Assembly: GCA_963841995.1 (NCBI GenBank)
Contig: CAWJEX010000003.1
Coordinates: 154,081 to 218,080, forward strand
DNA from: an uncultured Alphaproteobacteria bacterium
Lineage (GTDB): Bacteria; Pseudomonadota; Alphaproteobacteria; DATDPM01
Direction: 5' to 3'
Length of the DNA: 64,000 bases
Shown here: positions 1 to 59,042 of the stretch, piece after piece
Numbering within the stretch: the first letter of the stretch is position 1
Layout: the number at the start of each line of letters is the position of its first letter
Position numbers and translations under genes: made by a program
The notes under the pieces: model-generated
Databases searched by the model: none
The model's input: the letters and a program-made list of their open reading frames with translations, nothing else
What the model was told of the DNA's origin: nothing

Positions 1-1084
1 CGGCGACGGCGCTGCGAACGGGGCCTGGCCGAGCACCCGGAGCGACCCGACCAGAACCTCTGGCTTCCCATCGAAGCCGGTGGCGCGCAACGCGGAGACC
101 ACGAATTCATTGGGCGTCTTGACCTTCGGCAAAGGCTCCGCCCAAGTCTCTGGGGAGGAGACGAGTGCCAGCGCCAGGGCCTTCAGATTGCCGTCGGTTT
201 TCCGGAAAATATCGGTAAGCCGGGCGACCGCCGCCGGCGCCGGCTCATCGGCCATGAAGTGGCGGGCAAGCTTGGTGGCGACATGCTTGGCGGTCGCGGG
301 ATGGCGAGCAATAACCGCCAGCGCGCGCGTCCCTTCCTCTTCTCCCACTTCCCGATATTCGACGCCTAGAAGTGTCTTGTCGCCCGGTTCGTGAATCCGG
401 TCATAGAACTGGAAACTCCGATTGTCGGCTTGTTCGCCGTCTTTCAGCCTCACCACCGACCAGCCGGTCAGAATCTTGGCGAATTCACGCACGTCGGTTT
501 GGCTATAGCCGCCATCGACGCCGACCGTGTGCAGTTCGAGAATTCTCGCGCGCCAGATTTTCATTGAGCCCTTTGTTTTGGCGCCTCCCCGCAATCGAAT
601 CGGGACCGATCGACTGGGCGTTGTCGAGATAGAGCAGCATCGCCGGATGGCGGGTCGAAGCCGCGAGCATGTCGAGGAAACGGCCGGTCACATGGGGCCG
701 AATCGCCTCGCGTTCGAAGGCGCCGGAAAGTCCCAGGATCTTCGGGCGCTGCACGGAAACGGTGAAGTGATTCGACCAGAAGGCAACGAACCGTTCGAGG
801 ACCGGCTGCTTGGTCTCGATTTGATTCTGGGTTCGCGCCGCGGCCTCGGCCATATAAGCATCGCGCAAATTGCCGCGGATCATTTTTTGAAAATCGGGAT
901 TTTTCTTGTCTTGGGAAAAACGCTCGATTTCGGCCAGGCGCTGGCGGCCCGGCGCCAGATCGGCGAGGCGCGGCGGCAAGCCTGCTGGAAGTTCTAGCTG
1001 CTGGATGATCCAGCCGCGCGGAATCCGAAGCGGCCGCGGCCAACTCGCCGGGCTTGGCACCAAGCCCGAATCGGTTGACTGCAA
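1..1084 (-). CDS. DUF1800-family protein, runs off the window edge at its 3' end, with an apparent 1-nt frameshift near 541-547
   Basis: The ORF 503..1084 carries the DUF1800 signatures 'FWSNHFTV' and 'LYLDN...GLNENLARE'. Reading the minus strand below 540 in another frame continues the family pattern with no stop down to position 1: 'LELHTVGVDGGYSQTDVREFAKILTGW...FQFYDRIHEPGDKTLLGV...'. Confidence 0.6.
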
Positions 1085-1102
1085 TGGCGGCTTCCGGCGC
1101 GA

Positions 1103-1588
1103 TCACCGGTTGGGCGCTCCCCTATCCTTGTCCCATTCGGCGAGAGTTTTGCGCGCATCCGGCGAGAGATGGGAAATGGCGTCGGCCAGGGCGCTATGCA
1201 TTACTTTCTGCATGTCCTGCATCCGGCCGCGAACCTCCCCGAACGCCGCTTCCAGCGCGGTGCGATCGAAAGGATCGGCGGCGACGGCATCGCGTACCTT
1301 TTGCCGCGCATCGCGGACTTGCTTTTCCGCTGTCGCCATTTCCGCCCGGTATTCCACAATCACCGACAGGAATTGATCGCGGTCGGCGGCCGGCAGGCTG
1401 CTCGCCATGCGGTCGATGAAGGCGTGCATCCCGGGCCGTTCATTGGGCGAGCGCTGATCGGCGAATTCATGGGGCGGACGATGAAACCGGTGCGCGACCA
1501 CGAATCCGCCGATGAACAAATTGAGGCCGAGCGAAAGGAAGAGCGCCAGGAGCACCCATTTCGCGGCACGGGGATCGAGCGTCACCAT
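1103..1588 (-). CDS. Spy/CpxP-like periplasmic protein (LTxxQ-type periplasmic stress/heavy-metal sensor family)
   Basis: It has an N-terminal signal/TM segment, then helical LTxxQ-like repeats ('ADRDQFLSVI', 'LSPDARKTLAEW'). It is the last gene of the sigma/anti-sigma operon. Confidence 0.55.
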   Translation of the reverse strand: MVTLDPRAAKWVLLALFLSLGLNLFIGGFVVAHRFHRPPHEFADQRSPNERPGMHAFIDRMASSLPAADRDQFLSVIVEYRAEMATAEKQVRDARQKVRDAVAADPFDRTALEAAFGEVRGRMQDMQKVMHSALADAISHLSPDARKTLAEWDKDRGAPNR

Positions 1589-2016
1589 GGCGCGACGTCC
1601 GTGACCGTGAAGCCTGAAACTTGATCGGCGGCTTCGGCCTGAGTGCCCAAACTATAATCCGCGGCCAAGCCCATCCAGCCGACGATGCATCCGGCGGCAG
1701 CGGCAGCGGCAAGACCGGCGAAGCCCGGCCAAGCTCCGGTCAATGGAAATTTCCGGCGCGACGATTGGGGCAAGCGGTGAACGTTGCCCGTCGCGTCCCT
1801 GATCGCGGCAACAACGCCCTTCGCGTCCAGGCGCAGCTCGATCGCCTGGCCCGCTTCGTTCAGCAGCGAATCGAGCCGGCGCGCTTCGTCACGAAGGCGC
1901 TGCGCCTCCCGCGAATTGGCCAATAGCGCCAGTGCTCCATCCCGTTCGGTTTCCGGCCACCGCGCCGGATCCGCGCCAAAGGCGTCAAGAATTTGCCGCA
2001 AGCGTTCAATTGTCAT
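1582..2016 (-). CDS. anti-sigma factor (single-pass membrane protein)
   Basis: It starts at the ATG at 2016 ('MTIERLRQILDAFGADPARWPETER...'), which matches the 'AYGADPxRWP' N-terminus of alphaproteobacterial ECF anti-sigma factors. It has one TM helix ('WPGFAGLAAAAAAGCIVGWMGLAA'). Its start overlaps the sigma ORF stop by 4 bp (ATGA). Confidence 0.55.
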   Translation of the reverse strand: MTIERLRQILDAFGADPARWPETERDGALALLANSREAQRLRDEARRLDSLLNEAGQAIELRLDAKGVVAAIRDATGNVHRLPQSSRRKFPLTGAWPGFAGLAAAAAAGCIVGWMGLAADYSLGTQAEAADQVSGFTVTDVAPW

Positions 2017-2624
2017 CGTCGTTCCTCCTGCTCCCCTTCCCCTACTTGTCCACTGGCGCCTATTTGTCCATCGGTGCCATGAGATCGGCCAAATTTTCCC
2101 GCAACGTTCGCCGGGCCCGGACCAGCAGCGATTTCGATCGCCCCCACGCTGATCTCGAGAATCTCCGCCGCCTCGATATTGCTCACGCCTTCGAAATGGC
2201 AGAGCGTCAAGGCTGTGCGTTGACGGTCCGGCAATTGGGCAATCGCCGTTTGAACCCGGCGCGAGGTTTCGTTCGCCGCCAATATCTCGAGACCGTCCGG
2301 CTTCGAGTCCGCGATTTCGCCCGCCGCTTCGATCGGCGCCGGCGTCGGCTTCCGGGTGCGGTCGATGCAGAGATTCATGAGCACCCGGTAAAACCAGGTC
2401 GAAAACCGGGCACCGCCCTCGGCTTCGGGCTGCCACTCGGGAGCCTTGAGCCAAACCCGCAAAAACGCCTCCTGCACCACATCTTCCCCTTCGGCCTTGT
2501 TGCCAACGACCCGGGCGGCGAGCTTGCCCGCGTTAACCAGATGCCGTTCGACCAGTTTGGCAAAAGCCGCGTGATCGCCGGTACCCGAAAGCCGCATGAG
2601 CTCGTCGTCGGAACGTTCGTCCAT
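2013..2624 (-). CDS. ECF (sigma-70 family) RNA polymerase sigma factor with an aberrant C-terminus from an apparent +1 frameshift at ~2131-2135
   Basis: Regions 2 and 4 of sigma-70 are recognisable ('VQEAFLRVW...', 'LPDRQRTALTLCHFEGVSNIEAAEILEISVGAIE'). The canonical end of region 4.2, 'SKSLLVRARRTLRENLADLMAPMDK*', is encoded in the adjacent frame and stops at 2060. The annotated frame instead gives a Gly-rich 39-aa tail. Confidence 0.75.
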   Translation of the reverse strand: MDERSDDELMRLSGTGDHAAFAKLVERHLVNAGKLAARVVGNKAEGEDVVQEAFLRVWLKAPEWQPEAEGGARFSTWFYRVLMNLCIDRTRKPTPAPIEAAGEIADSKPDGLEILAANETSRRVQTAIAQLPDRQRTALTLCHFEGVSNIEAAEILEISVGAIEIAAGPGPANVAGKFGRSHGTDGQIGASGQVGEGEQEERR

Positions 2625-2750
2625 GGGCGATTCGGACCTAATGATTTATTCACGGAAGCGTGAGCGATTCCCTGCGCCGGCAATTACGCCGGGCGGGCGC
2701 CCCAGACTAAGGTTAATCGGGGATTAAGAAAATCCCGGGTTTGGAGGGGG

Positions 2751-3398
2751 CTAATTAGGCTGGGCGTCGGGCAATTTGCCGCCACCGGGCTGGCTGGGGG
2801 CAGGCTTGGCAGCGGGCGCCACAGGTGCCGTGGTGCTGACTGGCCGAACGCCAGGGGCGGCCACCGGGACGGCCGCCGGGGGTGCTACCCTGGGCGCTGT
2901 CTCGGCCTCAGTTTCGATCTTGGCCCAATTGGCGTCGGCAGTTTCGATAAATCCCTCGATTTCGGCCAACCACTGCTTTCTTACCGCCTCGGACGTATTG
3001 AGATAGAGCTTGCCGTCGAGGATCGTCCAAATCGTGGGATCGGCTACGGCCGGGGCGCCTTCGGCGACCGCATAGGCCGAATAGCCGCCGTATTGCGGCG
3101 CGTATTTCTCGGGCTTGGCCTTAAAGGAATCGCGGTGAGTGGGATCCGAGAACAGCCACGTTGCCCCCGCCCATTGATAAGCAAATTCTTTCGATCCCGC
3201 CTCGGCGTGGCCGTCGGCGAAATAGGCGACCGGGTCGTAGCCCTTTATCGCGACATTGTCGGCTCCCGACACGCTGATGTTGGATATGCCGTTCGGGGAG
3301 CCAGCAGCGGCTTGGCCAACCGCCATCAGCACTACGATCGCAGCGATGGCCGCGAGCTCGTGATCCCGCCGCAAATTAATCATGATCGGAAACTCCAC
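2751..3398 (-). CDS. secreted YHS-domain protein (putative metal-binding)
   Basis: It has a signal peptide and a YHS motif ('AIKGYDPVAYFADGHAEAGSKEFAYQWAGATWLF'). The C-terminal tail is Pro/Ala-rich. Confidence 0.6.
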   Translation of the reverse strand: MEFPIMINLRRDHELAAIAAIVVLMAVGQAAAGSPNGISNISVSGADNVAIKGYDPVAYFADGHAEAGSKEFAYQWAGATWLFSDPTHRDSFKAKPEKYAPQYGGYSAYAVAEGAPAVADPTIWTILDGKLYLNTSEAVRKQWLAEIEGFIETADANWAKIETEAETAPRVAPPAAVPVAAPGVRPVSTTAPVAPAAKPAPSQPGGGKLPDAQPN

Positions 3399-3579
3399 TT
3401 ATTGCACCGGCCTATGACCGCCGCTTTCACCTTGTATAGGAATGGGCCTCCGCCCGAAGACAATCAACACCTCCGGGTCTTTGCGGAATAGCCGATCCAT
3501 CAATAGGCGGCCTGGAAATATAACACGGGCCTGAAAAACCGGCCGCGACGGTCCACGCTTATCGCCGCGTCGAGCGGAA

Positions 3580-4116
3580 TTATTCGGCTTCGAGACGAAG
3601 CTGGCCGCGGCGCGGACCGCACGGGCGGCAATAGCAATCATGAATTTTCCGCCGAGGCGGGCGGACGAAATAATAGCGCTCGCCGCAATTGCCGCAGGCC
3701 CAGGTGACGACCGCATGAGCCCTGGCGGAAATATAGTCGATTTGATGCCGGACCACCGGATCTTCGCCGAGCAGTTCCATCGTCTGTTCCCAGCGCCAAT
3801 CATGCCCGCAATTCCGGCCCCAGTTGAGGTCGGCCAAGATATGGGCGCACTCGTGGAGAAAGGTGGTGTTGCGATCGCGCTCACGCCCGGCGCGCATCAG
3901 CGCGCCGTTCAAAACGATCCGCCGCTCCCGGGTATAGGCGGCGCCCGCTTGGATTTTGGCCCGCCGGCTCGCTTCGACGATCGTCCGCAAGCACTCGGTA
4001 TAGGCGTAGCCGAGCAACGCCGCCTTGAGCAGCCGCCCTTTAACTCTCCAGGCTGTGGCGAGTTCCGCCACCGTGCCCAAAACGTCCGTCGTCGATCCGT
4101 TTTTCATGATCCGCAA
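3580..4116 (-). CDS. SprT-like zinc metalloprotease-domain protein
   Basis: It carries an HExxH motif ('LHECAHILA') and a C-terminal Cys-rich zinc ribbon ('CGNCGERYYF...CYCRPCG'). Confidence 0.55.
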   Translation of the reverse strand: MRIMKNGSTTDVLGTVAELATAWRVKGRLLKAALLGYAYTECLRTIVEASRRAKIQAGAAYTRERRIVLNGALMRAGRERDRNTTFLHECAHILADLNWGRNCGHDWRWEQTMELLGEDPVVRHQIDYISARAHAVVTWACGNCGERYYFVRPPRRKIHDCYCRPCGPRRGQLRLEAE

Positions 4117-4402
4117 ATCTTAGCCGAGCCGAGGCCCTCGCGAAAAGAGACCGCCGCAGGATTCGTCCCTTGACTTTTGTCCTCGATTCGCTCCCCGGCC
4201 GGACCGCGGATTTTGGCCGAAAATCCAGTTCCGATTGCGCCCTTTCCAGCCGCACTTTAGTGTAATCCTTAAAGCCGAGCCAAGGGAGCTGCGCCTTTCC
4301 GGCCGGCGCGCAGCGCCCTTGGTTGGGGATTAACGGTCAAATCGGGGAGACCGGACATCCGTCCTATTTTCACGCAACTCAATTCCGACGCGGGGTAGAG
4401 CC

Positions 4403-5788
4403 ATGGATTTGTGGCGCACCAAAGCGCTGAACGCCGACGTTGTTCACGAGGGGCAGCTTCGGCGGGTGTTGGGCCCGGTCGATCTCACCGTGCTCGGCAT
4501 CGGGTGCATCATCGGCGCCGGCATTTTCGTTCTCACCGGACACGCGGCGGCGACGTCCGCCGGCCCGGGCATCGTTCTGTCCTATGTGATGTCGGGCTTG
4601 GCCTGCGCCTTCAGCGCGCTGGCCTATGCCGAGCTTGCCTCGGCGATCGGCGGCTGCGGCAGCGCCTATGGCTATGCCTATGCCGGCCTCGGCGAAATCA
4701 TGGCCTGGATCATCGGCTGGGATTTGCTTTTGGAATACGGCGTATCGGTGCCCACCGTGGCCTTGGGTTGGGCGAGCTATATGAACGACGCACTGACCAC
4801 GATGGGGCTGCCGATTCCCGACTCTCTCCTCCACAGCCCTTACGACCACGCCCAGGCCGGCATGGTGAATTTGCCCGCGGCGCTCATCATTCTGGCGCTG
4901 AGCGTCTTGCTCTGCATCGGAGTCAAGGTAAGCGCGCATTTCAACGCGCTGATGGTGACGGTGAAGCTCTGCGTGCTCGCCCTGTTCATCGCGATTGCGG
5001 TATTCGACGTCAATCCGGCGAATTGGCACCCTTTCATGCCCTTCGGCTGGGGCGGGGTGATGCAGGGTGCGGCCCTGATTTTCTTCGCCTATATCGGATT
5101 CGACGCGGTGTCGACCGCCGCCGAAGAAGCGCGCAATCCCCAGCGCGATCTGCCGATCGGAATTCTGGCCTCGCTCGCGATATGCACGGTGCTTTACATC
5201 GTCGTCTCGGGATTGCTGACCGGCATCGTTCCCTATTCGACGCTCAATGTGGCAAGCCCGGTGGCTGATGCGCTGATCCGCGCCGGGCACCGGATCGCGG
5301 GGGCTGCGATCGCGGTCGGAGCGATCGCGGGGCTCACGACCGTCATGCTCGTTCTCTATTACGGATTGACGCGAATCTTTTTGGCGATCGCCCGCGACGG
5401 ATTGCTGCCGCCGGTTTTTTCCGCGGTCAACAAAACAACGAAAACACCGATCCGCGTCATTCTGGTGAGCGGCGTGATCATGGCGTTGATCGCCGGCTTC
5501 ACCCCCATCGAGGGCGTGGCGCAGCTGGTGAATATCGGAACGCTCGCCGCCTTTGCATTGGTTTGCGCCGGCGTCATCGTGCTGCGCGCGACCGAGCCCG
5601 ACCTGCCTCGGCCGTTCAAGACCCCGTGGTCGCCGCTGATCCCGGTTCTCGGGATCGTCTTTTGTCTCTATCTGATCTACAGCCTGCCGGTCGTAACCTG
5701 GCTGCGCTTCGTGATCTGGATGGCGGTCGGCTTTGTCGTCTATTTCGGCTATTCGCATCGGAACAGCCTGCTCGCTCGGCAGTCCTAG
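4403..5788 (+). CDS. APC-family amino acid permease
   Basis: The 461-aa product has ~12 TM helices and the usual N-terminal 'LGPVDLTVLGIGCIIGAGIFVLTG' motif of amino-acid/polyamine transporters. Its TAG stop lies inside the MITE inverted repeat. Confidence 0.85.
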   Translation: MDLWRTKALNADVVHEGQLRRVLGPVDLTVLGIGCIIGAGIFVLTGHAAATSAGPGIVLSYVMSGLACAFSALAYAELASAIGGCGSAYGYAYAGLGEIMAWIIGWDLLLEYGVSVPTVALGWASYMNDALTTMGLPIPDSLLHSPYDHAQAGMVNLPAALIILALSVLLCIGVKVSAHFNALMVTVKLCVLALFIAIAVFDVNPANWHPFMPFGWGGVMQGAALIFFAYIGFDAVSTAAEEARNPQRDLPIGILASLAICTVLYIVVSGLLTGIVPYSTLNVASPVADALIRAGHRIAGAAIAVGAIAGLTTVMLVLYYGLTRIFLAIARDGLLPPVFSAVNKTTKTPIRVILVSGVIMALIAGFTPIEGVAQLVNIGTLAAFALVCAGVIVLRATEPDLPRPFKTPWSPLIPVLGIVFCLYLIYSLPVVTWLRFVIWMAVGFVVYFGYSHRNSLLARQS

Positions 5789-6013: not shown

Positions 6014-6055
6014 AGCCGCTATACGACGTCCGTCGGTCGCTTCATTGTCCGACCG

Positions 6056-6732
6056 TTAGATTTATCGAATACCGCCGTTCCGCCGCCTGCGGGAGAACAC
6101 GAGCCAGACGCCGCCAACTCCCAAAAAGAGCAGCCCCAACAGCGCGACCGGCCCAAGATTTCGTCTCCGGCGCGATGCGTTCGGCCACCGCGCTCGCAAC
6201 GGCGCCGGAAAACAGGATCGTGGGGGCCCAGAGGAAGGCCCACGCAACATTCGCCAGCCAAAAGCGCCCGCTGCATCCGCCTGATGCCGGCAGCCAGCGG
6301 GATCACCGCCCGCACCGGTCCGAAGAACCGTCCGATGAAGACGCTTTTCTGGCCATGCCGTTTGAAAAATGCGATCCCGCGCGGGATCAGCTCCGAATAT
6401 TTTGTGAACGGCCAAACGCGGTGCACCTCGTGACCGAATTGCCAGCCAATCCAGTAAGAAATGCCGTCGCCGAGGATGGCCCCGACGACGACGGCGATCA
6501 GAACTGGCCACACGGGCAGTATGCCCCGCGGCAACAGCGCTCCCGCCGCCAGCAGGATCACCGTGCCGGGGATCTGCAGACTGAGGAAGGCAAGCGATTT
6601 GCCAAACGCCGCCGCCAAGATGATCAGCGCCGCCCAAGCCGAGTACGTCGCGATGAAATCGGCCACGACATGAGTGGTGTGCTCCACGATTTGCCAGAAT
6701 AAACCAAGCGAATGGCGGCGACACCATCGCAT
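6056..6732 (-). CDS. DedA/SNARE-associated family membrane protein, with an apparent 1-nt frameshift at ~6266-6270
   Basis: The N-terminal ~150 aa are typical DedA ('GDGISYWIGWQFG', 'FGPVRAVIPLAAGI'). After 'RRMQR' the family continuation 'RFWLANVAWAFLWAPTILFSGAVAS...' is read in the adjacent frame and ends at 6056. The shift sits in a GGG run. Confidence 0.7.
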
Positions 6733-7352: not shown

Positions 7353-8914
7353 CTAAACCTCCCCACGGATAAATCCGGGGGGTTCTGAAGAGCTGGCGGG
7401 CGATTTTCTCCCGCCTTTATCGGTTCTCCGCGGCCCTCCCGGATGAGCAATGCCCACCGGTACGCCGTCCGCAGCCTCGCCGATAACTATACCCTTCTTC
7501 GACGGGCGACCCGCTCCGACGGTCTTGCGGCCGTGGGGTGCCGGAAAACCGGACCCGCTTGCAGGTTGGTGTTCGCTTGACGCCGCCCGTCGCAGCAGCG
7601 GTTTCGCAGCCGGAAAGGCCAGTGTGGCCTGCCGGGCGTCAAGCGTGTTCAAGCTCACATGGCGAGCCAGAAAAGCGGAATAGAGATCGCGCTGTATTGC
7701 GCCGGAACCGTCGCCCAGGACATGCAGGCGCTGGCTCAACGGCTTTTTCGCGAAATCGCCGGTGGTGTGGTCGAACTGGCTAAGACAGGTCGTGCTGGTT
7801 TTGAACTCGATCAGCTGTCCGCCCGCGCGTTTGGTCTTGTATCGAAGAATGGCGAGAAAAGAACCGCAGCCGCGGACCTTAGTGCTGCGCCCGAAAGATT
7901 TCTGGAAGCCTGAATAAGACAGCTTCTCGGTCTTGATGGTCTTGCCTTGAGCTAGAATGCGGTTGGCAAGCTCGCCATGCGCCCTTTTGCGCTCAGCCGC
8001 CAGCCGGCGTTCGCGCTCGCGTCTTTTTGCGGCAAGGCGCTGATAGCGCTTCGAGCGGTTCCAGAGTTTACGTCCCTTCTTTGCTGTGCCGTTATCATTG
8101 AAGTTGTCTGGATTGGTCGCCCGCCTGGATCGGTCCATCGCGCGCTCGATGCGCCGCATTTGCTTCCAAGGCTGCTCGACGGTCGGGCAGAAAGATTCCA
8201 GCGTCGCATCGCGTCCGGATACCGCGGCAATCGTGCTGGGCCCGATATCCAGACCGACCACGCCATCACTTGCCGGATATTTGACGGTGCATCGCCTTCC
8301 TGGATCAGCTGCACCGACCAGCGGAGACTCCCGCGTATCTCGCGCCGGATCAGGCGGCAATACTTGGTATTGGTTTGCAACGCCTCGCCCTGCCATCGAT
8401 CGCCGGGTGCCAGCATTGCCGTTAGACGCAGTCCTGACCACTCCACAGCGCCGTCCCTGAACCGTATACCGGCCTTATTGGTCTTGCCTTCGACCGAATG
8501 AAGTTCACCAAAGTGCTTGAATCGCGGCCGCCCGCGTTTGCCAAAGGCGTAGTGCCGAACCGCCCGGAAGGCCCGTAGCGCCGCCTTCTGGGTTTCGTTG
8601 GACGACAGATGGCAGCCGACCCAGCAGTTGTTCTTGCAGGCGATCGCATAGCGGTCCGCCATCGAGGATTTGAAATCGAAGCGTTGGATAACCGATTTGA
8701 ACAGATCGGATCTGTCCTGGCCTTTGGGCATTGCCCGCGCCCGCCGCCAGTCGCGGCTTTCCCGCATCAAGGCTAGAACTCGCAAACATTCGCCCAGCAC
8801 CGCGTTGTAAATCTGACGGGCGGCGTCCAGGCGCACCGAGAGGTCGCGACCATCCCCCGCCGTCGTGTTTAACGGCAATTCCAGGACAAAGCTGGAAACG
8901 GAGGTGCTGGCCAT
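7353..8914 (-). pseudogene. tnpB: tnpB (IS605 OrfB, RuvC-like RNA-guided nuclease family), frameshifted near 8265-8290
   Basis: The N-terminal part ('FVLELPLNTTAGDGRDLSVRLDAARQIYNAVLGE') is in one frame. The RuvC-I motif 'VVGLDIGPSTIAAVSG', the zinc-finger region and 'RDLYSAFLARHV' are in another frame. Confidence 0.7.
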
Positions 8915-9308
8915 TCAGACCTTCTTCTGGTTGGCGACATACTGCTTGATGATTTCCAGCGGCGCGCCACCTACCGTGGCTACGAAATAACTGTTGGTCC
9001 ACAATGTGGGCAGCCTGGTCCGCAGACTTCTGAAATTCCTGACGCAAAAGCCTGGACGACCATCCCTTCATCGCCTTCACCAAGCGATGAATGCCAAACT
9101 GCGGATCGGCGTCGACCAGCACATGCACATGATCCGGCATGATCTCCATCTCGATCAGCTGGCATTTATGGGCTGCCACGACATCGATGAGGATCTGCTT
9201 CAAGCGGATCTCCACATCGCCGACAAGCACATTGCGGCGGTACTTCGGGCACCACACCACATGATATTTGCAGGAAAACACCACATTGTGGTTCGAGCGG
9301 TAATCCAT
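8915..9308 (-). pseudogene. tnpA: tnpA (IS200/IS605 Y1 transposase), frameshifted near 9030-9035
   Basis: 'MDYRSNHNVVFSCKYHVVWCPKYRR...HVHVLV...' is the HUH/Y1 transposase. The conserved C-terminus 'RSLRTRLPTLWTNSYFVATVGGAPLEIIKQYVANQKKV*' is read in the adjacent frame. Its TGA is immediately followed by the tnpB ATG. Confidence 0.7.
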
Positions 9309-12341: not shown

Positions 12342-13095
12342 CTAGAGCCCCGTATTGGGATGGGATTCGAAGAGGCGAAAGGTCAGACGCTTCTTGCGCG
12401 GGCCATCGCCCTTTTGCCGGCGAACGAAGCGCCAAACGGCTGCCGGCGGAACATTCGAGCCAAATTCGTTCCGCGAGCTTTGCCGAAAGCCCGAGACGTG
12501 CGAGCAGGCGCTCCGGCACCGGCGAAACCGGGCCATAGGTGAACTGAATGAAAATTCCGTCGGCGTCCATAAGGTCGAAACATTGACGCAACAAAACGGT
12601 CTGCATGCGAGGCTTCATATTCAGCAACGGCAGGCCGGAAACGACCGCCGCGACTTTCTTGATCCCCGCCGCGCGAATCAAATGCTTTGCCCGCGTCGCG
12701 TCGCCGTGAATGATGTGGGACCCGGGAAAACGCTGGGCCAGCAAGCGGTAAAGGCCTTCGTCCCGCTCGACGACCACGAGATCGCGCGGGGCTATTCCTG
12801 AATTCAAAAGCGCCCGGGTAATGGATTCCGTCCCGCCGCCCAATTCGACGACAACGCCTTGCGGTTTGAATCGCAGGATTTCGGGGCGCAGGATTTCGGG
12901 ACCAAGCGCCGTCGCCATGGCCTTTGCCAGCGCCGCCCCGCTCGGAACGACGGCGCCGATACGCAACGGATTGCGCAACCACTTTCCGAACAGCATTTTT
13001 TCGTCTTCGACGTCCATCGCTTTCCTCGGCACCGCCAATGCAGTGTTCGCGAATTCAGGAGTGCTTTTTACCACCGCCGAGGCTTGGTGCGCCAC
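12342..13095 (-). CDS. class I SAM-dependent methyltransferase, phospholipid N-methyltransferase (PmtA)-like, with an apparent frameshift at ~12450-12458
   Basis: It has a GTG start. 'VVPSGAALAKAMA...VVELGGGTESITRALL...VVSGLPLLNMKP...FIQFTYGPVSPV' resembles Rhodobacter-type PmtA. The conserved C-terminus 'NVPPAAVWRFVRR' is in the adjacent frame and ends at 12342. The long ORF down to 12073 is read-through. Confidence 0.6.
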
Positions 13096-26362: not shown

Positions 26363-27257
26363 ATGCCGATAATCGCCATCAGGCACGTCACGACCTATCG
26401 CTATAAGCAACCGGTCTCGTTCGGCGAACACCGGATGATGTTGCGGCCGCGCGACGACGACGACCAGGAGCTGCTCGAATCCGAGCTCGAAATCACGCCC
26501 GAGCCGAGCCAACTTACCTGGATACAGGATATCTTCGGCAATCATGTCGCGATCGCCCGTTTCGCGGAGCCGGCCGCAGAGCTTCGCTTCGTCAGCACCA
26601 CTTGTGTCAACCACGCGCCGTCGGGGCTTCCACGCAGCCGATAGCGATAATTTTGCCCGAAGATATCCGTTTGGCTACGCCGCGGAAGATAGACCGGGGC
26701 TCGCGAGTTTTATCGCGCCGCTGGCATCGCAGCCCGCGCTCGATCGCTGGGTCGCCAGGTTTCTCCGCGAGGACGGATCGGCCGACACCCACGAACTTCT
26801 CGTCGACATGACGCAGACCATCAAGCGGACCTTCAAGCACACGGCGCGGCACGAGAAGGGCACCCAGGATCCGATCAGGACGCTGAAGCTCGCGAGCGGG
26901 AGTTGTCGCGACCTTGCGGTGCTCATGATCGCGGCGCTGCGCTCGCTTGGAATCGCCGCACGGTTCGTGTCCGGATATCTGCATCTTGCCGATGACGGCG
27001 ACCGTGTCGCCGGCGGTAACACCCATGCCTGGGTCCAGGTCCACGTTCCCGGCCCGGGCTGGGTCGACTTCGATCCGTCGAGCGGCATGGTCGGGAATCA
27101 GAACCTGGTGCGCGTCGCGGTCGTGCTCGAGCCGCGCGAGGCGATTCCGTTGCAAGGCACGTGGATCGGGACCGCGTCGGACCATCTCGCCATGAAGGTC
27201 GCGGTCAAGGTCACCGCGGCAGCGGATGCCGGCGCGACGTGGTCCCGCGCGGGATGA
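26363..27257 (+). CDS. transglutaminase-family protein (Bact_transglu_N + transglutaminase-like Cys-protease core), with an apparent frameshift at ~26595-26635
   Basis: 'MPIIAIRHVTTYRYKQPV...LRPRDD...DIFGNHVA' is the N-terminal domain (ORF 26342..26644). 'YPFGYAAEDRP...GSCRDLAVLMIAALRSLGIAARFVSGY...HAWVQVHVPGPGWVDFDPS' is the core with the catalytic Cys (ORF 26544..27257). The two overlap in different frames. Confidence 0.65.
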
Positions 27258-27353: not shown

Positions 27354-28182
27354 ATGAAAATTCGTGCAGGCTACGAGATTTCCTATGACTGCCCGCAGCC
27401 GACGCCCATGATCCTGACGCTGAGCGTCCATCCGTCACGCGTTCCCGATCTGCTGACCCGGGATCGCATGCCGTCTCGATCCGCCCATCCCCGCCAACAC
27501 CTATCACGACAGTTTCGGCAATTTCTGCCACGTGATCCGCGCCCCCGCGGGCCGGCTGACCATGTCCACGGACTTCCTGGTGCAGGACAAGGGCGAGCCG
27601 GACGCGATCGCCCCGCAGGCGGAGCAGCATGCGCTCGAAGACCTTCCGGTGGAGGTCCTGATCTATCTGCTCGGCAGCCGCTACTGCGAGACCGATCGTC
27701 TATCGAATACGGCGTGGTCCCTGTTCGGGCAGGTTCCGAAGGGTTGGCCGCTGGTGAAGGCGATCTGCGACTACGTCCACGATCGCATCACCTTCGGTTA
27801 CGAGCACGCGAGCCCGACCAAGACGGCATGGGATGCCCATACCGAGCGACGCGGCGTGTGCCGGGACTTCGCCCACCTCGCGGTCACGCTGTGCCGCTGC
27901 ATGAACATTCCGGCGCGCTACTGCACCGGCTATCTCGGCGACATCGGCGTGCCGCTCGACGATCCGCCGATGGATTTCAGCGCCTGGTTCGAAGCCTATC
28001 TCGGCGGCCGCTGGTACACCTTCGATGCCCGCCACAACAAGCCGCGCATCGGCCGCATCCTGATGGCACGCGGGCGCGACGCCACCGACGTCGCGATCGT
28101 GACCTCATTCGGCCCGTGTACGCTCGCGAGCTTCAAGGTGATCACCGACGAGGTCACGTCGACCGCTCCCGCGAGTCCGTGA
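27354..28182 (+). CDS. transglutaminase-family protein, paralogue of the previous gene, with an apparent frameshift at ~27466-27480
   Basis: 'MKIRAGYEISYDCPQPTPMILTLSVHPSR' is in frame 1. 'DPPIPANTYHDSFGNFCHVIRAPAGRL...RGVCRDFAHLAVTLCRCMNIPARYCTGY...FSAWFEAYLGGRWYTFD' is in the adjacent frame. Confidence 0.65.
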
Positions 28183-41359: not shown

Positions 41360-41997
41360 ATGACCGACCAGAGTCTAGTCGATCGAGCAAGTGAGATTCT
41401 TGAGAGCGCTAAGCTTCTCGACGCCGCCGTCGTAAATGCCCACGCTTTTTGGATGTTGTTAGGCAACCTAGTCGGACGTCCGCTGATTGCAGGGAAGACC
41501 CACACGCGAAAGCGTTGGATATGGCGCGGGCCGCAATCTTGCGAGCAGAAATTAGTGTACTGATGGCAATCCTCGATCCTGCAGATTGGCGAGGTAATCG
41601 AGCGAGTATTGGGCATATCGTAAAGGAGCTAAGAGACGAGCGGCTCTGGGCCCTCCTGCTATCGCGCCGCGAGGGTCAAACAGTGACCCGAAACGCGGCA
41701 AAACTCGCAGAGTTACAGAAGGGCTACAAATGCGTATGTGAAAACGAGTTACTTCAGCGCGTTAAACGATCACGAAACGATTCAATCGCGCATCTTCTCA
41801 GACCCGACATACCAACGCCATCCGTGGAACTCGCCGACGTTTTTTCTCTTCAAAATGAAGCAGAACGGCTCGTGATAACTTTGTTTGAAGGATTAGGAGG
41901 CGGCGAGCCTCAATTTATTGCTGCTCGGGAATCGATTCTTACAAGGGCTGAATTGTTTTGGGACACGTATTTTACTGGGATGCGACGATCGACATAG
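41360..41997 (+). CDS. hypothetical protein in a low-GC islet (frameshifted; possible HEPN-like Rx4-6H motif)
   Basis: The ORFs 41360..41563 and 41449..41997 overlap in different frames and read as one ~210-aa protein. 'RNDSIAH' fits Rx5H. Local GC is clearly lower than in the flanks. Confidence 0.35.
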
Positions 41998-52763: not shown

Positions 52764-52912
52764 GTATATCATCCCCTTAATACGGCATGCGCCGAGTGAT
52801 GAAGGATAAAGTCCCGGCATAATGACGCCGCGAGTTTATCCATGAAACCCCCGAAAAACAACCTTAGTCCGGTGAATATCATGCAAGATTACCGTGTGGC
52901 AAGGCTTTCTCC

Positions 52913-54271
52913 TTACGGCAGTAACGGCGACCACGCCGGATCGGACCCATCGAGCGGGGTGATAATCTCGCGCTCGTTATACCCCGTGATGTCGATGGAA
53001 TAGAGGCGGACATTGCCGCCATGGCCGGTCTCGTCGGTCGGCTGTTGCCGGAAATAGGCGAGAACGCGCCCATTTGGCGCCCAAGTCGGGCCTTCCACCA
53101 GGAAACCCTGGGCCAAACTGCGCTCCCCGGAGCCGTCCGGATGCATCACCCCGATATAGAATTCGCCGCCCGCTTGTTTGGTGAAAGCGATCAGATCGCC
53201 GCGCGGCGACCACACCGGCGTCGTGTACTTGCCGCTGCCGAAACTGATGCGGTGCTGATTGGCGCCGTTCGCATCCATCACATAGAGCTGCGGCGATCCG
53301 CCGCGGTCCGAATTGAAAGCGATCTGCTTGCCGTCGGGCGAGGCGCTGGGGGAGGTGTCAATCGCCGCCGTATCGGTCAAGCGCACGACGGACCGCGTGC
53401 GCAAATCCATCGTGTAGATATTCGAATTGCCCTCGGTGGACATGCTCATCAGCACGCTGTTGCCATCGGGAGAGAACCGGGGCGCGAAGGTCATGCCCGG
53501 AAAATCTCCGAGAACTTCCTGCTGCCCGGTGTCGATATTGAAGATGTAGACCCGCGGCTTGTTGTTCACATAGGAAAGATAGGTGATTTCCTGGGCGGTC
53601 GGCGAAAAACGCGGGGTGAGGACGAGCTCCCGGCCATCGGTCAAAAAGGTGTGATCGGCACCGTCCTGATCCATGATCGCGAGACGCTTGATGCGCCGTT
53701 TCTGGGAGCCGGTCTCGGACACGTAGACGATCCGCGTGTCGAAGTAACCGTCCTCGCCGGTGACTCGCTTGTACACGGCGTCGGATATCTTGTGGGCGAG
53801 GCGGCGCCAATTCTGCGGTACGGTAAAGAAAGCGAAACCGATCATCTGCTGCTCGGCGAAAACATCCCACAGCCGGAATTCAACCTTGAGCCGGCCGTCT
53901 TCTTGAAATTCCGCTTTGCCGGTCAACAGCGCCTGCGCGTTGATGACGCGCCAATCGGCGAAGCGCGGCTGAACCTGAAGCGAGGACGGGGTTTGAATGA
54001 ACGCGGCGGGATCGATCGGCTTGAACAGTCCCGACCGCTCCAAATCGCCCGAAACAACCTCGGAGATTTGCTGGCCGATCTGCTTCTCCTTGTCGATATT
54101 GCCGTCGAAGGCGGTGACCGCGATCGGCAGCGGTTCGACATGGCCGCGCGTGACGTCGATGTGCAACTCGGCGCGCGCCGGCGGCGCCCCGAACAAGATC
54201 GCGGCGATCAAGAGGGCCGATACCGCAATCGCGCGCCGCCAATTTCTATCGATCGATAAATCCATCGTCAC
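52913..54271 (-). CDS. tolB: Tol-Pal system beta-propeller protein TolB
   Basis: The 452-aa product has a signal peptide, a TolB N-terminal domain and WD-like beta-propeller repeats. Confidence 0.9.
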
Positions 54272-54274
54272 GAT

Positions 54275-55129
54275 TCACGCTCCGGTCATTTGCTTCGGGT
54301 TGAAGGTGATAACCATGTCTTTCCATTCGTCGTACTGATCCGACCGGAGCCCGACGTCCTGCAGCGAGCTGCACAGCGGATTGAGAACCGCCCTCAACGC
54401 GCTTTCCGCGGCTGCACGATAGAACGGATCGGTCGCGATGCGCCCGGTATTCACGATCTCGGCGCGCTGCACCGAGGCGTCGGGCGACAGGCTGACGCGA
54501 ATGTCCACCGCAAGATCCTCGGCATCCCGCGCCCCCGCCGGAATATTCCAGCATTTTTCGAAATGCCGGCGGATCGCATCGATCTGGCTGATCGTGACCG
54601 GCGATGCCGGATTATATTCGCGCGGCGCGGGTTTTTGATTCGTCAGCGCCTCCGCCGCTTCGACCGGCGTCTGCTCGTGCTGTTGCGGTTTCAGCTTTTC
54701 GACCGATTTCAAGACCGATTCCATGTCGTCGGGCGGCGGCGGCTTGCGTTCCGGCTTGATATCCTTGACCGGCGGTTCCGGCTTTACCTTGGGTTTCGGC
54801 GGCGGCGGCGGCGCTTCGGCCACCGCTTCGGGTTTTTGTTCCGGCTTGGGCGGTTCCGGCGGTGGCGTCTGGGCTTGCGGCGGCGGCGGCGGCGCTTTTT
54901 GCTCCTCGGGCTTGGGCGGTTCCGGCTTCGGCGGCTCCGGCTTTTCCACCTTGGGCGCCGGAGGCGGCGGCGCGTTCGTGGTCTCGGCGATGGTCACCAC
55001 GTCGATCGGAACCGGAAGACTCTCCATAGGAAGATCGCGGGCAAAATGCGGCAAGCCGAAGATGGCTAGCAGCAGGATGGCCAGGTGAAACAGGCCGGAA
55101 CAGATGGCGCCGCGATACATGTCGGGCAT
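54275..55129 (-). CDS. tolA: TolA-like cell-envelope protein (Pro/Lys/Glu-rich)
   Basis: An N-terminal TM anchor is followed by a long 'PPKPEPPKPEE' region and a C-terminal TolA-like domain. It lies between tolR and tolB. Confidence 0.7.
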   Translation of the reverse strand: MPDMYRGAICSGLFHLAILLLAIFGLPHFARDLPMESLPVPIDVVTIAETTNAPPPPAPKVEKPEPPKPEPPKPEEQKAPPPPPQAQTPPPEPPKPEQKPEAVAEAPPPPPKPKVKPEPPVKDIKPERKPPPPDDMESVLKSVEKLKPQQHEQTPVEAAEALTNQKPAPREYNPASPVTISQIDAIRRHFEKCWNIPAGARDAEDLAVDIRVSLSPDASVQRAEIVNTGRIATDPFYRAAAESALRAVLNPLCSSLQDVGLRSDQYDEWKDMVITFNPKQMTGA

Positions 55130-55149
55130 GTCGGGGCGGTGGCTCCTTT

Positions 55150-55629
55150 TTAATGGGCCGCGGGTTTCGCTTGGGGCAGCGGGCGCGCGATGGGGGCCGG
55201 CGCGCCATGCGGCATCTCGGCGATCAGCGCCACCTTGGAAAACCCGGCGGAACTGATGGTTCCCATCACTTCCATGATTCTGCCGTAGGGAACCGATTTG
55301 TCGCCGCGCACGAAAATTCGCGTATCGGGCTTCGACTGGGTGATCGCCGTCAAGCGCGGCACCAGCGCGTCCATATCGGTCTCGGTTTCCTGAAGGAAAA
55401 TTTTTCCTTCGGCATTGATGGTGACGACCAGGGGCTCGATCGCCTCATTGATTTGTGCCGCCTGGGTCTTCGGCAGATCCACCGGCACGCCGACGGTGAG
55501 CAACGGCGCCGTGATCATGAAAATCACCAACAGCACGAGCATCACGTCCACCATCGGCGTGACGTTGATCTCCGACATCGGACGGTAGCGACCGCGACCG
55601 CGGGTGGCTTGTGATGCGACGCTGACGGC
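55150..55629 (-). CDS. tolR: TolR (ExbD/TolR family)
   Basis: 'INVTPMVDVMLVLLVIFMITAP' is the ExbD/TolR motif. Confidence 0.85.
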   Translation of the reverse strand, partial: AVSVASQATRGRGRYRPMSEINVTPMVDVMLVLLVIFMITAPLLTVGVPVDLPKTQAAQINEAIEPLVVTINAEGKIFLQETETDMDALVPRLTAITQSKPDTRIFVRGDKSVPYGRIMEVMGTISSAGFSKVALIAEMPHGAPAPIARPLPQAKPAAH

Positions 55630-55631
55630 CA

Positions 55632-56366
55632 TCAGCGGCCCTCTTCGAGCTGGCGCGACAGGATCGCGCTGAATTCGCCGGAAAAAGATTCGAGTTTGTT
55701 CGCGTAGCGCGAGAGATCGCTGCTGAGCTTGTTGTAGGCGATCACCGCGGGGATGGCGGCGACCAATCCGAGGGCCGTCGCGAACAAGGCTTCGGCAATG
55801 CCGGGGGCCACCACCGAGAGGCTCGTATTGTGCGTGGCGCCGATGGATTGAAAGCTGTTCATGATGCCCCACACGGTGCCGAACAACCCGACGAAGGGCG
55901 CCGTCGATCCGACCGATGCCAGAAAGATCATATAGCGTTCGAGCCGCTCCATCTCGCGCCCGACGGCCACCTGCATCACCCGCTCGATGCGCTGTTGCAG
56001 GCTTTCTTGAACGCCGCCCCCCGCGATAACCCGCCCCTTGGAAACCGAGCGCCGCCACTCGCGCATCGCCGCCGCGAACACCGCCGACATCGGATGCTGA
56101 GGCCTGGTACCGACCCGGTCATAAAGATCGTCGAGCGATCCGCCGGACCAGAAGTTATCTTCGAACTCGGTGGTTTGTTTTTCCAGACGGCGCATCCGGA
56201 TCACTTTGTCGAAGATGATCGCCCAACTCCAAAACGACGCCAGCATGAGCAGCAGAATGACCGTTTTCACGATCAAATCGGCCCGCATGAAGAGACCCCA
56301 CATCGACAAATTGTAGGCCTCCGCCGCACTTGCGACGGCGTTGGGATCCATAACCGTTGTTTCCAT
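55632..56366 (-). CDS. tolQ: TolQ (MotA/TolQ/ExbB proton channel)
   Basis: It has three TM helices and 'GLFGTVWGIMNSF'. Confidence 0.9.
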   Translation of the reverse strand: METTVMDPNAVASAAEAYNLSMWGLFMRADLIVKTVILLLMLASFWSWAIIFDKVIRMRRLEKQTTEFEDNFWSGGSLDDLYDRVGTRPQHPMSAVFAAAMREWRRSVSKGRVIAGGGVQESLQQRIERVMQVAVGREMERLERYMIFLASVGSTAPFVGLFGTVWGIMNSFQSIGATHNTSLSVVAPGIAEALFATALGLVAAIPAVIAYNKLSSDLSRYANKLESFSGEFSAILSRQLEEGR

Positions 56367-56403
56367 TTTTCGCTCGCTACCTCACTTCCGGTTTATTTTT
56401 CGT

Positions 56404-56850
56404 TTATTCCCGAATCACGTTTTCCAAAGCCGTCCGCAGCATCGGCGGCAACCGCAGCAACCTTCCGTCCGGACCGAGACAAGCCAGCCGCACCCGAAGC
56501 CGCGTAATTTCGTCGCCGCTGCGGTGAATGACTTGGTCCGCGGTCACCGACGCACCCGCAGCTTCGGTGACCGAAGTCCGCACTTCCAAGACGTCATCCA
56601 ATTTGGCGGGGGCCAGAAAATCCACTTCGACGCGCCGGACGGCAAAGGCAATGGTGTGCTGCGCTACCAAGTCCCGGTAGCCGACGTCAAGCAGATGCAT
56701 CATTTCAGTGCGCGCCCGCTCGGCGAATTTAAGATAGTTGGCGTAATAAACAATACCGGCGGCATCCGTATCCTCGTAATAGACCCGCAGGGGATAAACA
56801 TGGATGCCGTCCTGAAAGCTCCCCGGACAGGGCGAATTGTCTTCAGCCAT
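56404..56850 (-). CDS. ybgC: YbgC-type acyl-CoA thioesterase (4HBT fold)
   Basis: '[20 protein letters not shown]' is the hot-dog thioesterase motif. It sits upstream of tolQ. Confidence 0.8.
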
Positions 56851-57910
56851 CGCCGGTGGCCTGCTCTTCGTTCAAGAAATCGAGCTGCGGCGCTTGGGAT
56901 TGCGGACGCGGCGTCAAGCCGAGATGCCGGTACCCGGATTCGGCAACCATGCGGCCGCGGGGCGTGCGAAGCACCAAGCCCTGCTGAATGAGATAGGGCT
57001 CGATCACGTCTTCGATCACGTCGCGCTGCTCGGAAAGAGCGGCGGCCACGGCGTCAACGCCCACCGGACCGCCGGAATAGGTTTCGACGATGCAATTCAA
57101 ATACCGCCGATCCATCGAATCCAAGCCGCGGACGTCCACCTCGAGCCTATTCAAAGCCGCATCGGCCGCTTTCGCGTCGACGCGCTTGGCGCCGGAAACG
57201 GCGGCGAAATCGCGGACCCGGCGGAGCAGACGCCCTGCCACCCGCGGCGTGCCGCGGGAGCGCCGGGCGATCTCGGCGGCCCCGTCGGGGGCGAGGTCGA
57301 AGCCGAGAATCCGCGCGCCGCGATTGACGATCTCTTCGAGTTCGGCTGGCTCGTAGAACGAGAGCCGCACCGGAATGCCGAAGCGCTCGCGCAACGGTGT
57401 CGCGATCAATCCTGAACGAGTCGTGGCGCCGACCAGAGTGAAGGGCGGAAGATCGATCCGCACGGAACGCGCGGCCGGACCCTCGCCGATGATGAGATCG
57501 AGTTGGTAATCCTCCATCGCGGGGTAAAGAATTTCCTCGACCACCGGGTTGAGCCGATGAATTTCATCGATGAAAAGCACGTCGCGCGGCTGGAGATTGG
57601 TCAGAATGGCGGCGAGATCGCCGGCCCGCGACAGCATGGGGCCCAAACAAGTGCGGAAACCCACGCCCAATTCACGGGCGACGATCTGCGCCAGCGTGGT
57701 TTTGCCCAAGCCCGGCGGGCCGCTGAACAGCACGTGATCGAGGGCTTCGCCCCGCACCTTGGCCGCCGAAATGAAGACGCGAAGATTCGCGCGCAGCTGG
57801 GCCTGGCCGATGAACTCGTCGAGGGTTTGCGGGCGAAGCGCGTTTTCCGGCGCGTCGCGCTCGGCATCGAAATTCGGAGCCGCCACGGTCCTGCTCTCGG
57901 CCGCCGTCAT
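56843..57910 (-). CDS. ruvB: Holliday junction branch-migration helicase RuvB
   Basis: It has the Walker A '[11 protein letters not shown]' and full RuvB colinearity. Confidence 0.95.
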
Positions 57911-58512
57911 CGCCCGAGCTCCTGCAATCCAGCGCGGATCAGATCGGCGACCGGCGCATTGCCGCCGAGACGTTGCGCCGCCTGGGCGACCGCGCCGAAG
58001 GCTTCGGTCCGGCGATAGCCGAGATTGACCAGGGCGGACACCGCGGCGGTTGCGTCATCGCCCGCACCCGGCGGCCGCGCGGCCGGCGGTTGCGCCGCGG
58101 CAAGCTCGACGGTTCCGATGCGGTCCTTCAACTCGCTGACGATGCGTGTCGCCAATTTCTGTCCGACGCCATCGGCCCGGGTCAGCATTTCCTTGTCGCC
58201 TGCCGCGATCGCCCGCAGCAAATCGTCCGGGCGCAGCGTCGACAAAAGCGCCAGCGCCAGCTTCGCCCCCACGCCTTGCACCGTCGTCAGCCGGCGGAAC
58301 CATTCCCGCTCGGCCTGATCGGCAAAGCCGAAGAGTTGAATCCGGTCTTCCCGGACATGGGTATCGATGAGCAGGCTCACCGGTTCGCCCACCGCCGGCA
58401 AGCGGCTCTGGGTCGCGGACGAACAAGAGACGAGATAGCCGACACCCGCGACATCGAGAATAACGCCGTCGGCAGTCGCCGAATCCAGAATGCCCGTCAA
58501 CTTTGCGATCAT
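57907..58512 (-). CDS. ruvA: Holliday junction DNA helicase subunit RuvA
   Basis: '[10 protein letters not shown]...' with OB-fold and HhH domains. The ATGA overlaps ruvB. Confidence 0.9.
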
Positions 58513-59036
58513 TATTCGCCTCCCGCCGCTTTGGCCCAGACGCGCAGAGTCGACGCATGATGGGCGTGGCAAACCGCAACTGCGAGCGCATCGGCCGCAT
58601 CGCCGCTGGCGAGTTCGCAGCCCGGAAACAGCACGCGGATCATCATCGCCACCTGTTCTTTTTGCGCGTGCCCATTGCCCACCACCGACTGCTTGACGAG
58701 ATTGGCAGAATATTCGGCAACCGGGATGCCGGCTTGGGCGGGGGCCAGCATGACTACCCCCCGGGCGTGGCCGAGTTTCAATGTGGACACCGGATTTTTG
58801 TTCACGAAGGTCTTTTCGACCGCGGCCTCTTCCGGTTTGTATTCGGCGATGATGCGGGCAACGCCCTCGCAGAGCTGCAAGAGCCTTTCGGCCAAGGAAT
58901 CATTTTCGTCGGAGTGAATGACGCCGTTAGCAATATGGCGGAGCCGATTGCCGTCGGCTTCGATGACGCCCCATCCGGTGTGGCGCAGCCCGGGATCGAG
59001 TTCCCAACACCCTCACGCCCTATTTGCCTTTTGCAT
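58512..59036 (-). CDS. ruvC: crossover junction endodeoxyribonuclease RuvC, interrupted by two closely spaced compensating 1-nt indels (~59018-59021 and ~59001-59002) that create an in-frame TGA
   Basis: The C-terminal 127 aa are in ORF 58512..58895. Upstream in the same frame comes '[34 protein letters not shown]'. Then 'R A * G C W E' replaces the consensus 'xIRVLG'. The 5 codons between the two indels read 'VRVLG' in the adjacent frame, restoring 'M...[16 protein letters not shown]'. Confidence 0.8.
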
Positions 59037-59042
59037 TCCGTC

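Follow-up and report, generated by a model that had tools for sequence, protein, structure and literature searches.

The DNA analyzed here, a 64,000-nt stretch of a contig from an uncultured alphaproteobacterium (hereafter the window), carries 13 reading-frame breaks spread over 11 genes. An earlier note on this DNA had claimed at least eleven frameshifted genes, and that count was borne out. The genes it listed do shift frame at or near the positions it gave, and the conserved continuation of each protein could be recovered by minimal edits. A full-length ORF is restored in every listed gene by one base per break, the exception being the first DedA break, which takes two. Four assemblies (GCA_049280315.1, GCA_052916045.1, Logan SRR28011880, and one ENA assembly) provided independent copies that are 99.85-99.99% identical to the window. 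The same-species comparison covered 30.4 kb, outside 25.9-34.1 kb and 38.0-58.9 kb, and yielded 28 differences. The two stretches fell outside the comparison because five of the 12 contig look-ups, those with the FGase, flavin reductase, ThiC, GlmM, and RpoH proteins, returned no same-species contig, owing either to a wrongly guessed start codon or to window-specific substitutions. For six sites, the reading of the window is opposed by two or three concurring assemblies, and positions 1148, 5812, and 11575 are each contradicted by two or three agreeing assemblies.

Table 1. Interrupted genes and other differences in the window (positions in nt; + and - within differences denote inserted and missing bases; G>A sites are relative to independent assemblies).
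Feature	Position	Strand	Difference
DUF1800 gene, running off the left window edge	1..1106	(-)	+A at 543 (GATTC>GAATTC); +T at 1022 (GGATCC>GGATTCC)
ECF sigma-70 gene	2060..2624	(-)	+A at 2132 (GAATC>GAAATC)
DedA/VTT-domain gene, two breaks	6062..6687	(-)	G-run 6267-6269; GAAATC 6157-6162
TnpB-family gene, IS200/IS605-type element	7353..8914	(-)	-1 at 8283-8287 (CCGTC vs. expected CCGGTC)
tnpA (Y1 transposase)	8915..9308	(-)	+A at 9028 (GAGTC>GAAGTC)
Intergenic 1-nt deletion	9404		2 nt from a GAATC site
PmtA-like methyltransferase gene	12342..13017	(-)	+C at 12456
Intergenic insertion	13394		+T in GATTC, inside a MITE-like repeat copy
Transglutaminase-like gene 1 (Bact_transglu_N + Transglut_core)	26363..27257	(+)	GGG>GGGG at 26623-26626
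Transglutaminase-like gene 2	27354..28182	(+)	C>CC at 27471-27472 (ATGCCGT vs. expected ATGCGT)
Kinase-like gene, 686 aa	34396..36457	(-)	+T at 34518 (TT>TTT); last ~40 residues altered
HEPN_AbiU2 island gene	41360..41997	(+)	1 base missing at ~41492-41496 (GGGAA vs. expected GGGGAA)
ruvC	58512..59016	(-)	single +A at 59001 (GACTC>GAACTC), 4 codons past the GTG start
G>A miscalls in GANTC	1148, 5812, 6440, 6600, 6692, 6839, 6967, 11575, 12463, 35648, 60437
G>A miscalls in RGATCY	4409, 12827

Seven of the breaks are single-base insertions that independent assemblies of this organism lack. They lie in the DUF1800 gene (two), the ECF sigma factor, tnpA, the methyltransferase, the kinase-like tail, and ruvC. 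The DUF1800 gene had been credited with a single break near 543; that site was confirmed, but a second insertion follows at 1022, and removal of both extra bases yields one ORF. The gene is intact in L002, where it encodes a 446-aa protein and lacks both insertions, and the one at 1022 is missing from L003 as well. L002 also carries an intact 187-aa ECF sigma factor with Sigma70_r2 and r4_2 domains; after repair, the window's version ends in ...GAIESLLVRARRTLRENLADLMAPMDK. A one-base edit likewise restores the ORFs of tnpA, which is an intact 130-aa Y1_Tnp protein in L004, and of the methyltransferase, which is intact in L009 (224 aa, ...AERIWLNVPPAAVWRF...). A GATTC site 6 nt away from the methyltransferase insertion is likewise miscalled, with G>A at 12463, and a further C>T at 12827, in GGATCC, alters the SAM-binding motif from GGGTGS to GGGTES. 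The kinase-like tail (~34530) had been offered as a possible further case and proved to be one, the extra T being absent from L008, where a 686-aa protein is encoded; this gene, whose Pkinase match is weak, also carries a G>A in GATTC at 35648. For ruvC, two compensating indels bracketing an in-frame TGA had been proposed. One inserted A suffices, and the TGA is merely the other frame crossing GTGA; L001 reads GTGAGGGTGTTGGGACTCGATCCC, its gene there matches Pfam RuvC, and dropping the A restores the ORF.

Three breaks, in the two transglutaminase-like genes and the AbiU2 gene, are contradicted by all orthologues examined. The Pfam halves of transglutaminase 1 are split over two frames, and its junction is read in a single frame in 70 orthologous loci, 62 of them gapless within ±8 aa. 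Orthologues of transglutaminase 2 read ...DRMRLDPP..., in a single frame across the junction in 155 loci (154 gapless); GATC sites lie on both sides of this break, 5-6 nt off. Scans of metagenomes and genomes found no same-species copy of the transglutaminase locus, the best matches being 92 and 90%, respectively, and these scans served for orthologue colinearity only. The AbiU2 protein matches PF18734, and eight homologues are colinear with ...GNLVGRPLIAG/EDPHAKAL... (the slash marks the break), so that adding one G gives a 212-aa ORF. A placement of this break at the T5 run 41444-41448 was rejected, as homologues keep the first frame to ...GNLVGRPLIAG.

The remaining three breaks, two in DedA and one in tnpB, are the same in L002, an independent assembly that is otherwise free of GANTC errors and in which several contigs stop at repeats, as those of short-read assemblies do. 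Because they are common to an independent assembly, these breaks are probably genuine mutations, and the two genes pseudogenes. The DedA break had been assigned to a GGG run; this run indeed has two G fewer than in homologues, but a gene model with one break only was discarded when the homologue alignment showed a second, the GAAATC motif having one A too many. Homologues (76-85% identity) are colinear with frames 0, 1, and 2 in succession, and joining the frames extends the VTT_dom match from 1-98 to 1-122 of 123 and improves NF008102 by 10 bits. The window is identical to L002 over 6010-6300, and window-specific G>A errors lie at 6440, 6600, and 6692. The joined TnpB protein (520 aa) matches NF040570 guided_TnpB over 12-383/389 in one stretch and is 93% identical to the intact 520-aa protein P0135, gapless across ...GDAPVKYPA...; the gene shows no indels relative to L002. 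GC3 and codon-usage frame plots, too noisy at 62% GC, neither placed the breaks nor decided the DedA tail.

What sets the differences apart is where they fall. Sixteen of the 28 lie inside GANTC, a motif that makes up 1.3-1.6% of bases, and two more lie within 6 nt of such a site. Among the first 24 differences, 15 were inside GANTC (binomial P~1e-21, with the motif at 1.6% of bases); of 69 GANTC sites, 16 were affected. Three of the remaining 10 fall in RGATCY, a motif (0.45% of bases) that was defined only after inspection of the data; they hint that a second motif is modified. The 13 substitutions associated with the motifs are without exception G>A, and the same-species indels comprise eight insertions vs. 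one deletion. One strand carries eight consecutive G>A errors, from 1148 to 6967, an indirect hint of strand-specific miscalling. The errors are very unevenly spread, 7-8 of the nine same-species indels lying within 0.5-13.4 kb. No same-species indel was found at 18.6-25.8 kb, where none of 18 GANTC sites is affected, and at 37.9-56 kb no truncated domains were detected by Pfam, all genes being full length. About one quarter of GANTC sites are affected in some stretches and zero in others; flanking-base context (CGANTCG) did not separate affected from intact sites.

We consider it highly probable (about 0.88) that most of the breaks are long-read base-calling errors focused on methylated GANTC rather than signs of decaying genes, and thus mostly an artefact of a known kind. 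The window would derive from a long-read metagenome assembly, most likely nanopore-only, of an organism whose DNA would carry CcrM-type N6-methyladenine at GANTC and, probably, another modification at RGATCY. Methylated bases would distort the pore signal, and a base-caller or polisher without methylation awareness would then call a neighboring G as A or add a base within the motif. Where coverage was low or reads came mostly from one strand, we infer that such read errors would dominate the consensus and leave clusters of G>A changes and single-base insertions, the latter splitting genes. A minority of breaks (transglutaminase 1, AbiU2, and the kinase-like tail, all outside GANTC) would be ordinary short-run length errors. 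Several lines of background are consistent with this account. The nearest relatives in a genome scan are Alphaproteobacteria near Methylocystis and Xanthobacter, and CcrM methylates GANTC (an m6A motif) in Alphaproteobacteria (10.1101/2024.03.01.583015); the window itself contains no ccrM gene. Many of them are Microflora Danica MAGs, whose assembly used Flye, a single round of Medaka 1.8.0, and no reads other than nanopore (PMC12313526). According to a preprint (10.64898/2026.01.14.699587), G>A prevails among the excess errors at methylation motifs of bacteria in R10 nanopore data, SNP-like sites show strand imbalance, and native reads exceed amplified reads in insertions consistently on CycloneSEQ and more variably in R10.

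The earlier note had attributed the breaks to a poorly polished assembly of error-prone reads. This reading is supported by the seven breaks missing from independent assemblies and the three at odds with all orthologues, but its explanation, indels mostly in homopolymer runs, was for the most part not upheld. Ordinary run-length errors with no role for methylation would account for transglutaminase 1 (G3>G4), AbiU2 (G4>G3), 34518 (T2>T3), and transglutaminase 2 (C>CC), plain run-length changes with no GANTC nearby. As the general cause, however, they are unlikely. Most indel events turn runs of 1-2 nt into runs of 2-3 nt inside or adjoining GANTC or RGATCY, and longer runs elsewhere in the window are intact; runs of at least 3 nt occur only at transglutaminase 1 (G3/G4), AbiU2 (G4/G3), and the first DedA break, the other breaks being 1>2 or 2>3, so that runs of ~4 nt or more are not what characterizes the indels. 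Homopolymer error also predicts neither the 16 of 28 differences in GANTC nor exclusively G>A substitutions. The other option in the earlier note, genuine pseudogenes, fits DedA and tnpB better; their breaks suit true decay, in one case of a redundant paralogue encoding a membrane protein and in the other of an IS copy. Extended to the remaining genes, so that the strain itself would have acquired the frameshifts and G>A changes through ongoing pseudogenization, it is quite improbable. Nine indels and 13 G>A changes, nearly all at two short motifs, make an implausible mutational history, and one that would have struck ruvC, a sigma factor, and a SAM-binding motif while the window differs from other assemblies outside the motifs at only ~5-7 positions per 30 kb and the genes at 37.9-56 kb stay full length. 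The breaks at 543, 1022, 2132, 9028, 12456, 34518, and 59001 also fail to reappear in independent assemblies.

The GANTC-bound changes could conceivably be real in another sense, if mutation in a sub-population had been directed at CcrM/HinfI-type sites. The motif may have been removed by G>A or by a 1-nt insertion when, for example, methylated or restricted sites were processed in an error-prone way. The sole hint of this is the extra A in the DedA GAATC (6157-6162), which resembles the window's error type yet is present in L002, and we regard such a history as very improbable. Programmed frameshifts occur in some IS transposases, and programmed frameshifting or transcriptional slippage could in principle keep broken genes expressed. 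The idea is scarcely credible here, since orthologues and same-species copies are single-frame at every site, the breaks have no common slippery motif, and the ruvC break comes only 4 codons past the start.

Systematic base-calling and consensus error at methylated motifs has close parallels in nanopore data, for example at Dam GATC and Dcm CCWGG in enterobacteria and in the G>A excess at motifs in R10 data (10.64898/2026.01.14.699587), with the same focus on short motifs, dominance of G>A among substitutions and of insertions among indels, one-strand runs, and SNP-like or frameshift artefacts surviving in finished consensus sequences. Unlike those cases, the motif here is GANTC (CcrM), the sequence is from a MAG, and both the methylation and the read technology are inferred. 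As with the homopolymer indels of long-read assemblies, which made short-read polishing necessary before R10.4 (PMC9262707), single-base indels split ORFs and reduce coding density; in contrast to them, the runs are mostly 1-3 nt and lie at a methylation motif, and the homopolymer model accommodates no more than 3-4 of the 13 breaks. The window also resembles genomes under reduction in that numerous conserved genes are interrupted by frameshifts. Genuine pseudogenes accumulate in this way in Mycobacterium leprae and in recent symbionts. Here, unlike there, near-identical independent assemblies hold intact genes, only DedA and tnpB look like pseudogenes, and nonsense mutations and deletions are absent, the changes being tied to motifs instead.

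The value of these results lies in a caution about sequence quality, not in new biology. Roughly a fifth of the genes in the window are mis-called. ORF-based annotation would falsely report loss of ruvC, the ECF sigma factor, and the methyltransferase, among others. Conserved residues are also altered by silent-looking G>A errors, as in the SAM-binding motif. Such errors can be corrected by methylation-aware polishing or short reads. Given their location at GANTC, they would be expected again in other alphaproteobacterial nanopore assemblies that lack polishing. The error pattern may also serve as a methylome read-out, pointing to CcrM-type methylation at GANTC, and possibly to a modification at RGATCY, in an uncultured soil alphaproteobacterium.

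The 13 G>A substitution errors and two intergenic indels (9404 and 13394) are additions to the earlier listing. At 9404, L004 and the Logan contig L005 have an extra C, and the T inserted at 13394 is missing from L006 and L007. As an internal control, three copies of the repeat span the 13394 site and two of them differ exactly at its GATTC, and the paralogous copy at 62040-62280 has kept GATTC.

Since spurious ORFs are plentiful in the window at its GC content of 62%, each claimed frameshift was tested by comparison with other sequences, and ORF logic was not relied on. Comparison contigs were found by exact-protein look-up of intact genes neighbouring the breaks, and the independent assemblies recovered in this way evidently represent the same organism: GCA_049280315.1 at NCBI (contigs L001, L002, L004, L006, L008 and L090; 99.85-99.99% identity to the window), GCA_052916045.1 at NCBI (L003, L009), the Logan assembly of SRR28011880 (L005), ENA contig L007 and JGI contig L091. 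The same-organism comparison spans 30.4 kb (1-15926, 18565-25865, 34076-38029 and 58857-62216). Exact-sequence look-ups of RpoH (32767-33657), ThiC (42265-44085) and GlmM (44951-46309) returned no record, even though the collection includes the neighbouring organism. The start codons may have been guessed wrongly, or the window may carry further substitution errors of its own in these regions.

Proteins of DUF1800 (446 aa), ECF sigma factor (187 aa), TnpA (130 aa), the methyltransferase (224 aa) and the kinase-like protein (686 aa) are intact in the comparison assemblies, as is the start of ruvC. Relative to these assemblies, the window carries single extra bases at 543, 1022, 2132, 9028, 12456, 34518 and 59001, and deletion of each of the seven restores the full ORF. 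The break at 1022, a second one in the DUF1800 gene, had previously escaped notice. The earlier note's observation of single-nucleotide frameshifts in conserved genes largely holds. In ruvC, a pair of compensating indels bracketing a TGA had been proposed, but one edit (59001) is enough, the GTG start at 59016 having been crossed in the wrong frame. The island ORF (41360-41997) encodes a HEPN_AbiU2 protein; its homologues follow the first frame through ...GNLVGRPLIAG and the second from EDPHAKAL, placing a one-base loss at ~41492-41496 and not in the T5 run.

The breaks in this ORF and in the two transglutaminase-like genes are judged by orthologues or homologues only. The junction in the second of these genes (27354-28182) is crossed in a single frame by 155 orthologous loci, 154 of them gapless, and their reading of ...DRMRLDPP... 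at this point indicates a surplus C in the window at 27471-27472. In the first gene (26363-27257), where the window has a surplus G in the run 26623-26626, 70 orthologous loci cross the junction in a single frame (62 gapless).

Differences from the comparison assemblies are concentrated in GANTC, which makes up 1.6% of bases and yet holds 15 of the 24 differences over the first 21.8 kb (P~1e-21), where 16 of 69 such sites are affected. Over the whole 30.4 kb, 16 of 28 differences lie within GANTC and two others are 2 and 6 nt away from one. Among the remaining ten, three fall in RGATCY (AGATCC once and GGATCC twice; 4409, 1022 and 12827), a motif of 0.45% of bases that was defined post hoc from the same data and that may point to modification at a further motif. 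GATC is unusually frequent (565 sites per 64 kb window), and the errors at 27471 and 34518 sit 5-7 nt from one. Each of the 13 substitutions associated with the motifs is a G>A change on one of the two strands, with eight consecutive ones from 1148 to 6967 on the same strand; indels comprise eight insertions and one deletion. The seven differences outside the motifs (five mixed substitutions, plus 34272 and the insertion at 34518, which lie 4-5 nt from a GATC) are too few for strain separation. There are six sites where the window is contradicted by two or three independent assemblies in agreement. A MITE-like repeat of ~230 bp, with terminal inverted repeats TAGAGCATGATCTTGTCAG...CTGACAAGATCATGCTCTA, provides an internal control: three of its four copies span a GATTC site, and two of the three are altered exactly there. 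One copy has a ~100-bp internal insert and another is truncated. Several comparison contigs stop at this repeat or are misjoined across it, and L009 is chimeric.

Errors are dense in 0.5-13.4 kb. In 18565-25751, all 18 GANTC sites are unaltered and a single mismatch to L090 occurs in 7.2 kb, vs. ~23% of sites affected elsewhere; from 37.9 to 56 kb all Pfam domain matches are full length and thereby show no frameshift. Flanking bases do not account for error-dense vs. error-free stretches; the contrast would likely stem from local depth or from strand ratio.

In Alphaproteobacteria, the adenine methyltransferase CcrM acts on GANTC (10.1101/2024.03.01.583015). The closest relatives of the window belong to this class and lie near Methylocystis and Xanthobacter. 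A preprint on native versus amplified DNA reports that the excess errors at methylation motifs of bacteria are dominated by G>A in R10 nanopore data, that the resulting false variants are strand-imbalanced, and that insertions are higher in native reads, consistently on CycloneSEQ and more variably in R10 (10.64898/2026.01.14.699587). Microflora Danica MAGs account for many of the closest genomes; they were built from nanopore reads only, using Flye and a single round of Medaka 1.8.0 (PMC12313526). The best explanation is therefore methylation-induced base-calling error retained in the consensus, where we infer the read technology, the methylation and the cause of clustering alike. Assembly error had been proposed in the earlier note, and that origin stands in substance; the homopolymer cause largely does not, since the differences track methylation motifs, and no more than four breaks (both transglutaminase-like genes, AbiU2 and 34518) fit simple homopolymer error. 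Single-frame coding in orthologues contradicts programmed frameshifting. Mass pseudogenization, the alternative raised initially, is excluded for the window-specific sites and survives only for DedA and tnpB.

The frame changes in these two genes are present in the window and backed by joined-frame matches. With the DedA frames joined (6062-6687, minus strand), VTT_dom coverage grows to 1-122 of 123 positions, compared with 1-98 before, and the DedA model score rises by 10 bits; homologues at 76-85% identity exposed a second break at GAAATC (6157-6162). The joined TnpB matches an intact homologue at 93% identity, gapless over all 520 residues. L002, the contig spanning these genes, has the window's sequence at all three breaks, although the remaining errors of the window are absent from it. 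In the assembly to which L002 belongs, several contigs terminate at repeats (an IS element and the 230-bp repeat), which points to short reads as its source. On these grounds the three breaks are most likely genuine mutations, affecting a DedA paralogue in decay and an IS copy that is now dead. The break at 6157-6162 consists of an extra A within GAATC. It is of the same kind as the window-specific GANTC insertions, yet it occurs in L002, which is otherwise free of such errors.

The phenomenon is already known, and the main value of these results is as an annotation and quality warning. By-products are an inferred methylome and two genes that are probably true pseudogenes. A C>T miscall at 12827, in GGATCC, changes the SAM-binding motif of the methyltransferase from GGGTGS to GGGTES, so substitution errors also damage conserved residues while keeping the frame. 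Within the ruvC-to-ftsH cluster, ruvC alone is disrupted, via the insertion at 59001; tolR, tolB, pal, cpoB, tilS and ftsH have full-length Pfam domains and the remaining genes are ORFs of expected size. A stretch of ~3 kb (28200-31180) is lower in GC and lacks a clear coding signal.

Coordinates of repeats, genes and RNA elements in the window
Feature	Position	Strand	Remark
MITE-like repeat	5780-6020	-	
MITE-like repeat	13095-13425	+	
MITE-like repeat	17750-17930	+	
MITE-like repeat	62040-62280	-	
PEP-CTERM-type ORF	29845-30462		intact; within 28200-31180
tRNA gene	30946-31018	-	within 28200-31180
TPP riboswitch	42076-42209	+	upstream of thiC; above Rfam gathering score
ruvC-ruvA-ruvB-ybgC-tolQ-tolR-tolA-tolB-pal-cpoB, then tilS, ftsH	52248-59016	-	standard gene order
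6S RNA gene	60667-60823	-	downstream of 5-FTHF cyclo-ligase/ZapA region; above Rfam gathering score
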